Source of the DNA: a virus
Lineage: Duplodnaviria; Heunggongvirae; Uroviricota; Caudoviricetes
IMG/VR virus record: IMGVR_UViG_2681813269_000007
Reading direction: 5' to 3' (one strand)
DNA: 22,505 nt
Under the pieces are notes generated by a model, which did no database searches, was not told the origin of the DNA, and saw only the letters and a program-made list of their open reading frames with translations. How positions within the stretch are numbered: position 1 is the first letter of the stretch; each line of letters opens with the position of its first letter. Positions 6,798 to 19,259 of this stretch are shown here, in pieces. Both the position numbers and the translations under genes were made by a program.

Positions 6798-7580
6798 CTA
6801 TTTATTGGTGATTTCTGCTGGCTTTAGCTGCGCGGATAACTGCTCAAGTTTTTGAACTGCCAGTTCAAAATGCGCGGGTAACGCCTTTTCCAGATCAGAG
6901 TTAATATCGGTGATGGGTAAATCACCACACGACATACTCCGCCTACCCCCACGAACAACATCACGCAACAACTCTCGTTCATACGTGCGCATGTTCCCCA
7001 ATGCCGACTCAGCAGCCGTCAAAATCCGGCGCAGTTCTGCCGTAATTGCTGGCAAATCATCAACCGTTATGGGGTTCGGGGATGGATTACGACACGCCCG
7101 ACGCAAAGCTAACCATACACCGCTAATCCAGGCATTTCGGTACTGAAAACTTTGTGCTATATCGTTAATCAGCCCTCGCAGATACTCTTTCTGCCTCCAG
7201 TTCAACGGCTCCGCTGCTCGCATTGGCTCAGGCTCGATGTAAACGTACTCTCCATTTTTGCGAATAGAGGGCAAGACTTCGTTCGTTACCCATTTGCGAA
7301 ACCGCCAAGCTGTTGTGCCTTGCTTCACCGCGTCACGGCAGCGGAGGATCAGGGTGTATAGACCTGACTCTGAAATAATATTTAGCTTTTGCTCTCCGCC
7401 AGGGGTGTAACTTAAAGTTACACCCTTTTCATCCTCATCCAGAGACATTAGCGCCTTCCGGGAATTAACGAGTCTTAAAGCATCACATACATCCTTAGCC
7501 ACAAACCACGGCTCACCGTTAATCATCACTACACGAACCTGATGCTCTTCCTGAAAGGAAAAGACTGCTAACGCGCTCAT
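6798..7580 (-). CDS. Phage antirepressor with Bro-N-like N-terminal domain
   Basis: 260-aa ORF. The N-terminus (FQEEHQVRVVMINGEPWFVAKDVCDALRL...) fits the Bro-N / KilA-N antirepressor fold. Start overlaps the stop of the upstream small ORF. Position matches the N15 anti-immunity locus. Confidence 0.7.
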   Translation of the reverse strand: MSALAVFSFQEEHQVRVVMINGEPWFVAKDVCDALRLVNSRKALMSLDEDEKGVTLSYTPGGEQKLNIISESGLYTLILRCRDAVKQGTTAWRFRKWVTNEVLPSIRKNGEYVYIEPEPMRAAEPLNWRQKEYLRGLINDIAQSFQYRNAWISGVWLALRRACRNPSPNPITVDDLPAITAELRRILTAAESALGNMRTYERELLRDVVRGGRRSMSCGDLPITDINSDLEKALPAHFELAVQKLEQLSAQLKPAEITNK

Positions 7581-7810
7581 TCAGCCTCCTTATCGCGCAG
7601 CAAGTGCGACGAGAGAGACGCAGAATATCCCTGTGCTTCATGCGTTAACTCACACGCAATCTGCAGAAGTTTTCCAGCCTCTGAGAGGTAAATCGACGCC
7701 TCACAACTGGAGACTGTCCGATGGGCTGATGATACGAGCGCATAGACCTGAGCCAGACGTTCATCCAACGATTCCAGCAGGCCAACAGTGTTCATTTTTA
7801 CCTGATTCAT
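7577..7810 (-). CDS. Small protein, first gene of the antirepressor operon (icd-like position)
   Basis: 77-aa ORF with GAGGTGG RBS 4-5 nt upstream, translationally coupled to the downstream antirepressor. The Icd-like assignment is by position only (P1-style c4-icd-ant order). Confidence 0.5.
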   Translation of the reverse strand: MNQVKMNTVGLLESLDERLAQVYALVSSAHRTVSSCEASIYLSEAGKLLQIACELTHEAQGYSASLSSHLLRDKEAE

Positions 7811-8137
7811 GCAGCCACCTCGCGCACCGGAATACGGGCAGACAATACCAGGACAAACCGGCTGGCGAACTGGCGACGAGCTTCCCGTTCAGATGACGCG
7901 ATAGTGGAAAGATGATGAATGTGGGACTTTTTGTCTGTGCGAACGACTGCCGCAAATTTGAATTTGAACATGGTATGCACTCCGTTTTATTGGTCGTGCT
8001 ACCTCCAGAGTTGCGAATCTCTTTATTGGTGGTAGCCCAGGCGGGGTTCGCAATACCGGTAAACGAAGAAACCGGCCCGACCGAAGTCAGCCCCACCTGA
8101 GCCACCATAATTCGGATATGCGCAGGTCTATACACAT

Positions 8138-8213
8138 AAAAAAACACGCTGGCGCGTGTTGTGCGCTTCGTTTTGCCAGGATTGCGAAGTCCCGACTGCG
8201 GGATTTACCGCAG
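8138..8213 (-). ncRNA. Candidate small regulatory RNA (c4/cA-like) upstream of the antirepressor operon
   Basis: On the minus strand: -35 TTGACG (8250-8245), -10 TAAAGT (8226-8221), then about 75 nt ending in an intrinsic terminator (ACACGC-GCCA-GCGTGT plus U7, 8159-8138). The predicted RNA has a 5' hairpin CUGCGG-UAAAUC-CCGCAG. No convincing ORF in the region. Confidence 0.3.
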
Positions 8214-14162: not shown

Positions 14163-14284
14163 TTTTTAGCCATTCCATGCGAATTATGTTTTTTCGGGTT
14201 GAAAAAATCCGCAGGAGCAGCCACAATAAACGCATCTTGAATTGACGGAATCCGTCGCGTTACTGTGGCTGCTTCCTGAAAAGG

Positions 14285-14313
14285 ACCCGAGTTTGCCGAC
14301 TCGGGTTTTTTTT
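14285..14313 (+). terminator. Intrinsic terminator on the strand antisense to the repA leader
   Basis: ACCCGAGT-ttgccg-ACTCGGGT followed by T8, on the plus strand 123-151 bp upstream of the repA start codon. A possible -35 TTGAAA lies at about 14200 on the plus strand. Confidence 0.5.
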
Positions 14314-14407
14314 CGTCTTTTTTCTGCTGCTGTAACCTGAGTCAACCCACAGAACATATGCCCTGCATTAAACCAGATTTACAGCAAACAATAAACCCCG
14401 TATTAAG

Positions 14408-15004
14408 TCATCTACCCTCAACCATGAATGATTTGATCGTTCCGACTATTTGGTGAACAAATTCAAGATCGCTTTTCCTGAAGATGGCTCGTTGTGAGTT
14501 TGTTCCATCCAGATAGTAATTTTCATCATCAAAACGGGCCAGGCGCTGGATAGTGATATTTCCTGCAGTATCACGAACCAGAACATCCTCGCCGGGGACC
14601 AGTTCCAGCGCAGAATCGACCAGGAGAAAATCGCCTGGCTGATAGTTTCCCTGCGTAAGATTGCTGATAGTTAACGCATACACAGTATTGCGCTGGCTGA
14701 TGAATGGCAGGAATCGCTCAGTATTTGGAACCTGTCCCGGCTTCCATTCTTCATCAGGCCCACTTTCAGTTGTGCCAATAATAGGAATGCGATCAGGGTC
14801 ATATTCTGTCCCATATAGCACCCAATGCACTGGCTTGCGTAAGCACTTAGCCAGGGCAATACCTATCTCCAGTGACGGCATTACGTCGCCACGTTCTAAG
14901 TTTTGGACGCCTGCTATAGAGATATCGACAGCCTCAGCAACTTCTCGCAACGTCAGCTTCATCTCTAAACGGCGTGCTTTCAGTCGTTCGCCTCGTGTTT
15001 TCAT
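14408..15004 (-). CDS. cB: Prophage repressor CB (CI-like, N-terminal HTH, C-terminal S24-like domain)
   Basis: 198-aa ORF with an XRE-type HTH (LTLREVAEAVDISIAGVQNLERG) and a LexA/CI-like C-terminal fold (GDFLLVD ... ITIQRL). Divergent from cro across an operator region. Confidence 0.85.
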   Translation of the reverse strand: MKTRGERLKARRLEMKLTLREVAEAVDISIAGVQNLERGDVMPSLEIGIALAKCLRKPVHWVLYGTEYDPDRIPIIGTTESGPDEEWKPGQVPNTERFLPFISQRNTVYALTISNLTQGNYQPGDFLLVDSALELVPGEDVLVRDTAGNITIQRLARFDDENYYLDGTNSQRAIFRKSDLEFVHQIVGTIKSFMVEGR

Positions 15005-15026
15005 ACTGTAATCATAAATGATCTTC

Positions 15027-15068
15027 TTATAGCTGGCTATAAAATTTATTTATTATAGCTGGCTTTAA
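15027..15068. promoter_or_regulatory. Paired operators in the cB-cro intergenic region
   Basis: TTATAGC-TG-GCTATAA (15027-15042) and TTATAGC-TG-GCTTTAA (15053-15068) are 26 bp centre to centre, followed by TATAAT at 15084-15089. Confidence 0.6.
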
Positions 15069-15095
15069 TTGTTATTTATTGTTTATAATAACAAC

Positions 15096-15317
15096 ATGAA
15101 ACCAGAAGAACTTATTCGCCACTTTGGCAGTGTTGAAAAAGCAGCGGCAGGGGTAGGTGTAACACCCGGAGCTGTTTACCAATGGTTAACCGCTGGAGAG
15201 ATTCCTTCATTGCGGCAAAGCGATATTGAAGTTCGTACTGCTTACAAGCTGAAGAGTGACTTTACAACTCGGCGGGTAAAGCAGTCGATTAAGGAGAGTC
15301 GTAAGCGTGGAGCTTGA
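15096..15317 (+). CDS. cro: Cro-like repressor
   Basis: 73 aa from ATG 15096 (MKPEELIRHFGSVEKAAAGVGVTPGAVYQWL..., an HTH). The ORF track extends to a TTG at 15069 that lies inside the operator, so the shorter start is preferred. Confidence 0.7.
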   Translation: MKPEELIRHFGSVEKAAAGVGVTPGAVYQWLTAGEIPSLRQSDIEVRTAYKLKSDFTTRRVKQSIKESRKRGA

Positions 15318-16017
15318 GTATATACGCAGCTGCGTCTCTACGGCATTGGCTGATGTTCATTATCGCCAGCGTGGCATTCTGGAGGTCCAGCTTGAGCAGA
15401 TGCGTCTCGGTAGATCAGGACGGTTTAACAATAAACCAGTCCGGTCAATCAGTGTGGGGGATGATAACTCATACGAAGTGTCCGTTCCCGCTGAGCCGGT
15501 TAGATTCCACCAAGGGAAAACATTTAAACAATCATCAATATTGCTCACTGATATTGATTTTCAGAGCGCCAGCTGGCGCAGGGCTATTGGTCAGTTGAAT
15601 AACGAGGAATCAGCCTGGCTTTATTATTGCTACGGATGCAAGCCTGACTACAACAATGATGTGATTGTTTGTCAGTGGTTATGGCTTGATTTTCTGGTTG
15701 CTCATTCTGGGGGCGGCTTTAAAAAAATGAAGGCCTCCACGAAAAAAGCCATGCGGAAATTGATTTATTACGCGGCACAGCAGGTTAAATCAGAACTTAC
15801 GTGTGCTGAGGCAGTTGATGAGAGAGAACAGGACAGGCATCTGAGTTTTCTACTGAATATATCTATTGATAGCTGGAGACAAGATTATAAAGAACGCTGG
15901 CTTTTAATTAAGTCGCGATGTCTGAGCTTAAATCGAACCGCATTATTAAATGCGGCGGAGAAGCGCAGTGAAATCATCAAACGCCATCGGGCAGGAAGTG
16001 CCATTCTGCCTTTGTAA
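15307..16017 (+). CDS. Hypothetical protein in the position of a Q-like late antiterminator
   Basis: 236-aa ORF with GTG start and AAGGAG RBS, overlapping the cro 3' end. Function inferred from gene order only. Confidence 0.35.
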   Translation: MELEYIRSCVSTALADVHYRQRGILEVQLEQMRLGRSGRFNNKPVRSISVGDDNSYEVSVPAEPVRFHQGKTFKQSSILLTDIDFQSASWRRAIGQLNNEESAWLYYCYGCKPDYNNDVIVCQWLWLDFLVAHSGGGFKKMKASTKKAMRKLIYYAAQQVKSELTCAEAVDEREQDRHLSFLLNISIDSWRQDYKERWLLIKSRCLSLNRTALLNAAEKRSEIIKRHRAGSAILPL

Positions 16018-18799: not shown

Positions 18800-18998
18800 C
18801 TGGTCACGGAATGATAAATAAACAAAAAGGCATAGTTTTTGAAATGATGAGAAAACGAAGCGAAAAGAGTTTTTCTTATGGTGATGATGGGCTTCTGTAG
18901 GTGGTTGAGTGAGGCGTAGGAAGAGAACATAAGTATCGGACTACAAAGCTATTAACCCTGTTAATCCATTGAAAGTTGGCTATAAAATTTGAGTTTTA

Positions 18999-19018
18999 CC
19001 CTGTAATTTTATACAGTA
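18999..19018. promoter_or_regulatory. LexA (SOS) box
   Basis: CCCTGTAATTTTATACAGTA is a canonical CTGT-N8-ACAG with AT-rich spacer, 23 bp upstream of the ATG at 19041. It is the only such match I found in the window. Confidence 0.6.
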
Positions 19019-19040: not shown

Positions 19041-19259
19041 ATGGTATTAGATTCAATGACTGAAGCATCTGTATCAACTCTTGAAGAACTCGGATCAAAC
19101 CTAAAAGACATCGACGCCGTTTTGGATCTGGTTAGCGTTGCTCTGGCTTCTCCCGAAGCTAGCTTGCATCTTGGCGAGATTTCACGGCTTGTTAGTATGT
19201 CGCGGGAGATTGCTCAGAATTGCCAACAAGCGATTGCTGTGGAGTGTTTACATCATTGA
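19041..19259 (+). CDS. Small acidic protein under the LexA box (candidate SOS-inducible antirepressor)
   Basis: 72-aa ORF, acidic and predicted helical, immediately downstream of the LexA box and convergent with the toxin-antitoxin pair. Confidence 0.55.
   Translation: MVLDSMTEASVSTLEELGSNLKDIDAVLDLVSVALASPEASLHLGEISRLVSMSREIAQNCQQAIAVECLHH

Follow-up and report, generated by a model that had tools for sequence, protein, structure and literature searches.

How does a prophage respond to DNA damage when its repressor carries the fold, but lacks the active site, of the self-cleaving LexA-like repressors? This is the question raised by the cB locus of a 22,505-nucleotide stretch of viral DNA (IMG/VR record IMGVR_UViG_2681813269_000007), which we refer to as the window. 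In our view the answer is very probably the one worked out for phage N15, applied here to a CB orthologue that is 77% identical to the N15 protein. The sequence analysis itself establishes the homology and fold of CB, the lack of the catalytic residues, the places of the operators and the joint conservation of the LexA box and antC. DNA binding by the window CB, its resistance to cleavage and its interaction with AntC would follow the published work on N15 and phiKO2, from which we infer them. A non-cleavable CB, five operators and a LexA-controlled antirepressor are already documented for N15 and phiKO2, and GenBank and RefSeq already contain near-identical sequences; the scheme itself thus contains nothing new.

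The element and its primary immunity region

Judged by its sequence, the window is a linear plasmid-prophage of E. coli and resembles N15. Around cB, the DNA of the Escherichia phages YDC107_1 and PhiR46_1 is 99.0% and 97.3% identical to it, respectively, and that of N15, phiKO2 and the Klebsiella/Enterobacter relatives about 75%. Genes follow one another as they do in N15: protelomerase, the immA-like operon, repA, cB, and then the divergent cro and Q (Table 1). This gene order identifies the block formed by repA, cB, cro and Q as immB, the primary immunity region of an N15-type phage-plasmid; by analogy, CB acting at OL/PL would be expected to control repA, which lies downstream. Because both sequence identity and gene order match those of N15, the name CB, which the repressor had been given in the original prediction, is apt. 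A search of 5426 complete E. coli genomes identified the cB-cro segment in 18 of them, on plasmids in every case and never on the chromosome; the plasmids listed with this segment are 27-63 kb long, mostly about 46-51 kb. N15-like phage-plasmids are carried by many Klebsiella and Enterobacter genomes and by a small fraction of those of E. coli.

Table 1. Features of the immunity regions and of the antirepressor loci (positions are those of the window; strand is left empty for sites)
Feature	Positions	Strand	Basis or remark
immA-like operon	6798-8147	-	homologues of N15 genes 31 and 30; Ash-family ORF first
Bro-N protein	6798-7580	-	Pfam Bro-N; 74% identity to N15 gp30
AntA-like small antirepressor, 77 aa	7577-7810	-	63% identity to N15 gp31; same PHROGs as AntC
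Ash-family ORF	7761-8147	-	Pfam Ash; at the position of N15 gene 32
repA, 1331 aa	10167-14162	-	matches N15 gene 37 and phiKO2 gp35
OL1-position site, ATATGCCCTGCATTAA, diverged, candidate	14356-14371		position of N15 OL1 GTATAGATCGGATTAA, 9/16 identical
OL2-position operator, TTACAGCAAACAATAA	14379-14394		3 mismatches; aligns with N15 site TTATAGTCAGCAATAA, annotated as CB-binding
cB, prophage repressor CB, 198 aa	14408-15004	-	ORF; 77% identity to N15 CB; phrog_4
S24-like C-terminal domain of CB, without catalytic pair, residues 72-195	14420-14791	-	AlphaFold2 model, Foldseek, Pfam in relatives
Gln153 codon CAG, catalytic Lys position (LexA K156, UmuD K97, lambda K192)	14546-14548	-	profile alignment, hhalign
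Thr117 codon ACG, catalytic Ser position (LexA S119, lambda CI S149)	14654-14656	-	alignment to lambda CI 2ho0
Ser81-Gly82, position of LexA Ala84-Gly85 cleavage site	14759-14764	-	register by eye, IPIIGTTESGP against LexA LPLVGRVAAGEP
HTH_3 DNA-binding domain of CB, residues 8-61	14822-14983	-	Pfam PF01381, E 3.3e-11
OR3, TTATAGCTGGCTATAA, perfect palindrome	15027-15042		same as OR3 of N15 and phiKO2
OR2, TTATAGCTGGCTTTAA, one mismatch	15053-15068		aligns with N15 OR2 TTATACCTAGCTTTAA
OR1, TTATTGTTTATAATAA	15076-15091		aligns with N15 OR1 TTATTGATTATAATAA and phiKO2 TTATCGAATATAATAA
cro, 73 aa	15096-15317	+	Pfam P22_Cro, E 1.7e-22; synteny with N15 cro
Q-like antiterminator	15307-16017	+	Pfam Phage_antiter_Q, E 1.8e-83
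LexA (SOS) box, CTGTAATTTTATACAG	19001-19016		overlaps inferred antC promoter TTGAGT-17-TACAGT
antC-like small antirepressor gene, 72 aa	19041-19259	+	56% identity to N15 ORF behind the N15 LexA box

The match between the window CB and N15 CB has an E value of 7e-121, with 23% of positions differing, and the protein also matches the transcriptional repressors of phrog_4 (E 7e-25). The N15 annotation starts the protein at an ATG further upstream (MIKGM...), which in the window is not in frame; therefore, CB is 198 aa long here. PDB sequences matched by its helix-turn-helix domain are the N-terminal domains of DdrO, 434 Cro and P22 C2, and the recognition-helix segment GVQNLERGD is the same in the window CB and in N15 CB. 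In an AlphaFold2 model of CB built on the family alignment (mean pLDDT 87), a five-helix N-terminal domain is followed by an all-beta C-terminal domain, which begins at residue 72.

Fold and catalytic positions of the C-terminal domain

The AlphaFold2 model, together with its Foldseek matches in the PDB, assigns the C-terminal domain of CB to the LexA / lambda CI / UmuD (S24) fold. Lambda CI, 186 CI, LexA from several species and UmuD are the top matches of the CB model (E 1e-5 to 1e-3, probability 1.00), with 186 CI (2fjr) at an E value of 1.6e-5, and nearly every match at E ≤ 1e-3 is a chain of LexA, lambda CI, 186 CI or UmuD. Sequence comparisons give a fainter picture. The Pfam Peptidase_S24 model matches residues 99-171 of CB with an E value of 2.2e-4 and 21.3 bits, which is under the gathering cut-off of 23.3; PDB profile E values are 0.04-0.3; and hhalign, run against LexA as a single sequence, gives a probability of 3.5%. 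Such values would also be expected if the domain were not derived from S24 at all and instead were an unrelated beta-rich oligomerisation domain, in which case to speak of missing catalytic residues would be meaningless. We consider this highly unlikely: Peptidase_S24 is matched at E ≤ 0.01 by 11 of the 21 full-length homologues, with a best E value of 1.3e-8, the structural search groups the model with the S24-fold proteins named above, and a single register emerges from three independent references.

The original prediction had aligned CB to LexA by hand, reading Thr in ISNLTQ (residues 113-118) at the position of the catalytic Ser and Gln in ITIQRL (residues 150-155) at that of the catalytic Lys. 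A profile made from the C-terminal domains of 17 CB homologues and searched against PDB sequences returned the same assignments. In the alignment to lambda CI (2ho0), '...EVEGNS' falls on '...LTISNLT', which places Ser149 (EGNSM) opposite Thr117, in a column that is variable in the family; lambda 'FTFKKL' and UmuD 'FTVKKL' fall on 'ITIQRL', which places Lys192 and Lys97, respectively, opposite Gln153. With the same profile, hhalign put 'VTVKRL' of E. coli LexA on 'ITIQRL' and thus Lys156 opposite Gln153, at the probability of 3.5% given above; the E. coli LexA sequence used was checked by its A84-G85, S119 and K156 numbering. The individual E values are weak (0.01-0.3), those of the matches to PDB chains (0.04-0.3) being non-significant, and it is the agreement among the lambda, UmuD and LexA alignments, along with the fold match, that argues for the Thr117 and Gln153 equivalences. 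The manual and profile alignments thus concur, and neither places Ser or Lys at a catalytic position. An earlier single-sequence PDB search with full-length CB, which retrieved HTH domains and UmuD just at an E value of about 0.7, was superseded by the C-terminal domain profile.

More informative than these scores is the comparison of the same two columns among 21 homologues. At the Ser position we found Ile in seven, Val in five, Lys in two, and Thr, Ala, Phe, Leu, Ser and Asn in one each; at the Lys position, Gln in eight, Tyr and Gly in four each, Leu in three, and Phe and Met in one each. Lys is absent from the latter column in all 21, and none of them has the Ser and Lys pair. Within this set, Thr117 is found only in the window CB: N15 has Ile, and cluster P0001, which is 98% identical to CB and has 156 member sequences, has Ala. 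At the position that corresponds by eye to the LexA cleavage site, 12 of the 21 homologues have Thr and nine have Ser, followed by the invariant Gly82 and Pro83; Pro74 and Gly77 are invariant too. In this manual register, N15 CB has Thr-Gly, and neither Ala-Gly nor Cys-Gly was found at the equivalent linker position of CB.

The alignments confirm that CB is without the catalytic Ser nucleophile and the Lys general base, and RecA*-stimulated self-cleavage would not be expected. Because its S24-like domain appears to be catalytically dead, CB would be unable to cleave itself, as the original prediction had proposed. Could CB nevertheless still be an autocleaving S24 repressor that relies on non-canonical residues, such as Ser114 or a Thr117 nucleophile paired with a different base, and that RecA* inactivates directly? 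On the one hand, Thr serves as the nucleophile in other hydrolase families, Ser114 lies three residues upstream of Thr117, and the invariant Gly82-Pro83 occupies the position of the LexA cleavage loop. On the other hand, Thr117 is not retained even in the 98% identical cluster, position 114 is variable (G/S/T/E/D/N/A), and the Lys column (Q/Y/G/L/F/M) never holds Lys. Published results on the relatives point the same way: neither the Ser and Lys of the active site nor a site for RecA cleavage was detected in phiKO2 CB or N15 CB (PMC4997575), and the N15 repressor was 'non-proteolytic' in vivo upon SOS induction with ciprofloxacin (Silpe et al. 2023, PMC10432266, Fig. 1b). Thus, we regard direct autocleavage as extremely improbable, and a cryptic Thr-based protease in CB is very unlikely.

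CB resembles LexA, lambda CI and UmuD in the beta-fold of its C-terminal domain and in its GD (G124-D125) and GEDV motifs, and it shares the two-domain layout with LexA and CI; it differs from them in lacking, at the aligned positions, the Ser nucleophile, the Lys base and an Ala-Gly or Cys-Gly bond for cleavage. Automatic NCBI labels among its relatives vary and include 'LexA family transcriptional regulator' and 'S24 family peptidase'. Cleavage in response to RecA should not be taken for granted in CB-family proteins, a point whose importance beyond correct annotation is small.

It is mildly puzzling that the GTTxS/TGP loop stays invariant although the protease domain appears to be dead. One tentative and, in our estimate, rather unlikely explanation is that the conserved remnant of the cleavage region, (V/I)P(V/I)IGTTx(S/T)GP, has been kept through re-use, either as a docking surface for AntC/AntA or as a latch that acts within the protein on the cleft of the dead active site. 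If this were true, antirepressor binding would imitate the conformational switch that RecA* sets off in LexA.

Operators on both sides of cB

In the N15 immB record (U45242), three CB operators lie between cB and cro (OR3, TTATAGCTGGCTATAA; OR2, TTATACCTAGCTTTAA; OR1, TTATTGATTATAATAA) and two lie between cB and repA. N15 CB and phiKO2 CB each bind all five of their 16-bp operators, for which the motif TA-N10-TA was described, and phiKO2 CB binds most strongly at OR1 (PMC4997575). The original prediction had recognised two TTATAGC-TG-GCTATAA operators next to the window cB and had concluded that these were the only ones, with no lambda-like triple. Both palindromes are real, but they are not identical, as the one at OR2 carries a mismatch. 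The conclusion about their number did not hold: a homologue of OR1 lies just outside the segment then considered, and the spacer between cB and cro is colinear with the OR1-OR3 region of N15 and phiKO2, without rearrangement and with a mean column identity of 90%. OR1 carries the TATAAT -10 hexamer of the cro promoter and is situated directly upstream of cro. The OL2- and OL1-position sites are both found between cB and repA, upstream of repA. The TA-N10-TA frame is kept in all five window sites. A palindrome search across the window that allowed up to three mismatches gave 6 matches, in comparison with 1.37 expected, a number that was reached in none of 100 shuffles. The fragment 15020-15075, which had been suggested for EMSA, would leave out OR1, which is probably the best site.

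On the minus strand, a promoter-like site (TAGCCA-17-TATGAT, 15039-15011) overlaps OR3, and OR3 overlaps the -35 element of this predicted cB promoter. The end of the promoter-like site and the ATG of cB are 7 nt apart, so that cB might be transcribed without a leader.

These sites suggest how the N15 model would operate in the window. The N-terminal HTH domain of CB would bind the 16-bp TA-N10-TA operators, while the C-terminal domain, a degenerate S24 beta-domain, would presumably contribute only dimerisation and cooperativity. OR1 and OR2 together would cover the -10 and -35 elements of the cro/Q promoter, OR3 would cover the cB promoter, and one or two operators would overlie the promoter of repA. 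CB dimers on OR1-OR3 and OL would silence cro/Q and throttle repA; thus, the operator layout suggests that CB represses the lytic genes and limits plasmid copy number in the prophage state.

Routes of induction

The window contains a single perfect CTGT-N8-ACAG sequence, the LexA box, which lies 25 nt upstream of a small ORF on the plus strand. The second ATG of this ORF, at 19056, is more likely to be the conserved start, which would shorten the product to 67 aa. A perfect LexA box, CTGTGTTTATATACAG, is also present in N15 (39564-39579 of its genome), and behind it lies an unannotated ORF of 75 aa, to which the window ORF is 56% identical (E 3e-26). On the strength of its position we take this N15 ORF to be antC. 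N15 gene 47 was also considered as antC and was rejected because its sequence does not resemble that of the window ORF; the true homologue is the unannotated ORF downstream of gene 47. The product of the window ORF matches phrog_6301 (E 3e-35) and phrog_10889, the latter labelled 'anti-repressor'. Using tblastn, we identified the ORF in 13 phage records, all of them N15-like Escherichia, Klebsiella or Enterobacter phages.

The LexA box and the ORF behind it are kept in all six N15-like phages that were aligned (the window, N15, PhiR46_1, MStein-2023a, KpLi5 and phiKO2). In the upstream alignment of these six, the box TGT-N8-ACAGTAT and the TTTG upstream of it are invariant, and the flanks diverge. 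This pattern fits a LexA-occluded promoter of the form TTGnnn-17-TACAGT. A generic sigma-70 promoter scan returned nothing at antC, and by our own count the putative promoter, to which conservation points, scores 8/12. An operator-like half-site at 18970-18985, adjoining the putative antC promoter, was dismissed as a chance occurrence, as it is not conserved in relatives.

Passages on N15 in two papers (PMC3121763 and PMC4488713, citing Mardanov & Ravin 2007) describe AntC as a LexA-controlled antirepressor that acts on CB, and place antC expression at the start of N15 induction. The proposal that SOS induction of the window prophage would have to go through an antirepressor is thus supported by an apparently LexA-box-controlled homologue of the putative N15 antC, along with this literature. 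DNA damage would be sensed indirectly: cleavage of LexA would derepress the antC promoter at the SOS box, and the small AntC protein would bind and inactivate CB. A paralogous small antirepressor encoded in the immA operon might provide a second, SOS-independent anti-immunity route. Shared PHROG profiles suggest a kinship between the AntC-like and AntA-like ORFs; a BLASTP comparison of the two was non-significant.

The immA operon might instead be the main route. According to this possibility, induction would proceed chiefly through its AntA-like and Bro-N products, or through an SOS-independent signal, and the LexA box would serve some other use. The window does contain a complete immA-like operon, with both the AntA-like paralogue and the Bro-N 'Ant' protein. 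Furthermore, AntC is just 76% identical to that of the nearest relatives, in comparison with 97-99% for cB, which leaves the cognate pairing of AntC and CB putative. However, the LexA box was retained with antC in each of the six phages while the flanking DNA diverged, a search of the window revealed no LexA box before immA, and induction of N15 is reported, in the passages cited above, to begin with antC. In addition, the AntC and immA routes are not mutually exclusive. Thus, we consider a mainly immA-driven induction unlikely, and we favour the N15-type route, in which LexA controls antC and AntC would inactivate CB. For N15-like phage-plasmids, predictions of induction should therefore look for the module formed by a LexA box and antC.

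Known systems resemble the window to different degrees. The closest are N15 and phiKO2, which share with it the repA, cB, cro and Q order, the 77% identity of CB, an identical OR3, an OR2 and an OR1 in matching places, OL-position sites upstream of repA, the lack of Ser, Lys and Ala-Gly in CB at the aligned positions, a LexA box with an antC homologue behind it, and the immA operon. The differences comprise about 25% DNA divergence, an AntC that is 56% identical, an OL1 that is strongly diverged in the window, Thr rather than the Ile of N15 at the Ser position of CB, and a window OR2 (TTATAGCTGGCTTTAA) that is nearer to a palindrome than its N15 counterpart (TTATACCTAGCTTTAA). Coliphage 186 likewise has an HTH repressor, CI, the C-terminal domain of which gave one of the best Foldseek matches to the CB model; however, 186 is an integrating P2-like phage with another operator architecture and genome type, and no sequence resemblance between AntC and Tum was noticed. 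We know of no report of cleavage of 186 CI. This repressor is inactivated by Tum, a small LexA-controlled antirepressor that binds it (PMC3121763). The Gifsy prophages are similar in their use of small antirepressors: their induction proceeds via GfoA and GftA, which are directly controlled by LexA and are encoded outside the immunity region (PMC3121763), although these are integrated lambdoid prophages.

Two antirepressor-like genes and a possible exchange of the AntC module

The window has two small antirepressor-like ORFs, one within the immA-like operon and the other behind the LexA box (see the table for the coordinates of these and the other features). Both match phrog_6301 (AntA-like ORF, E 1.5e-36; AntC-like ORF, E 3.3e-35), and both also match phrog_10889, which is labelled "anti-repressor"; a BLASTP comparison of the two ORFs with each other found no significant similarity. 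These ORFs are probably distant paralogues under different control. The AntC protein is only 76% identical to its counterparts in the nearest phages, PhiR46_1 and YDC107_1, whereas identity to these phages is 97-99% across the cB-cro-Q segment. This disparity suggests that the antirepressor module was swapped by mosaic exchange relative to its target repressor.

Features of the window discussed in this section
Feature	Coordinates	Strand	Location or basis
AntA-like small ORF	7577-7810	-	immA
Promoter-like site TTGAAA-17-CACAAT	14199-14227	+	repA leader
Strong hairpin terminator	14278-14313		repA leader
Putative 116-aa ORF	14661-15011	+	antisense within cB
Predicted -10 TATGAT	15016-15011	-	upstream of cB ATG
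Gene 47 homologue, apparently disrupted	18818-18955		comparison with N15 gp47
Operator-like site TGAAAGTTGGCTATAA	18970-18985		16 nt upstream of antC LexA box
AntC-like small ORF	19041-19259	+	behind LexA box

Sequences ahead of the antC LexA box

OR3, the CB operator at 15027-15042, has the same right half-site and flanking sequence (GGCTATAAAATTT) as the operator-like site. The latter is not conserved in PhiR46_1 or N15, and for that reason the likeness is probably due to chance; if genuine, the site would allow CB to bind at the promoter of the antirepressor gene. The homologue of N15 gene 47 has an early stop in its reading frame (MINKQKGIVFEMMRKRSEKSFSYGDDGLL), followed by a C-terminal remnant (KYRTTK...). 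N15 gp47 is 73 aa long, and the version in the window looks like an internal deletion or a pseudogene relative to it.

The CB start and CB homologues

Alignment with N15 places a gap directly upstream of the cB ATG (15005-15016), so that, by manual reading of the frame, the upstream start annotated in N15 (MIKGM...) is out of frame in the window; CB would then begin at MKTRGER. The predicted -10 would yield a near-leaderless cB transcript, similar to that of lambda cI from PRM. The N15 record holds an equivalent of the putative antisense ORF, labelled "unknown", that also overlaps cB. In some database homologues of CB from Klebsiella (P0029, P0035, and P0039), the reading frame is shifted locally within the linker or HTH (e.g., "LVLNLILTAFLLLAQQK"), which points to errors in sequencing or to prophage repressors that are decaying.

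The repA leader

In N15, a promoter for an antisense RNA (Pinc) and a bidirectional terminator are annotated; their counterparts in the window are the promoter-like site and the hairpin of the repA leader. This correspondence suggests antisense control of repA on top of control by CB.
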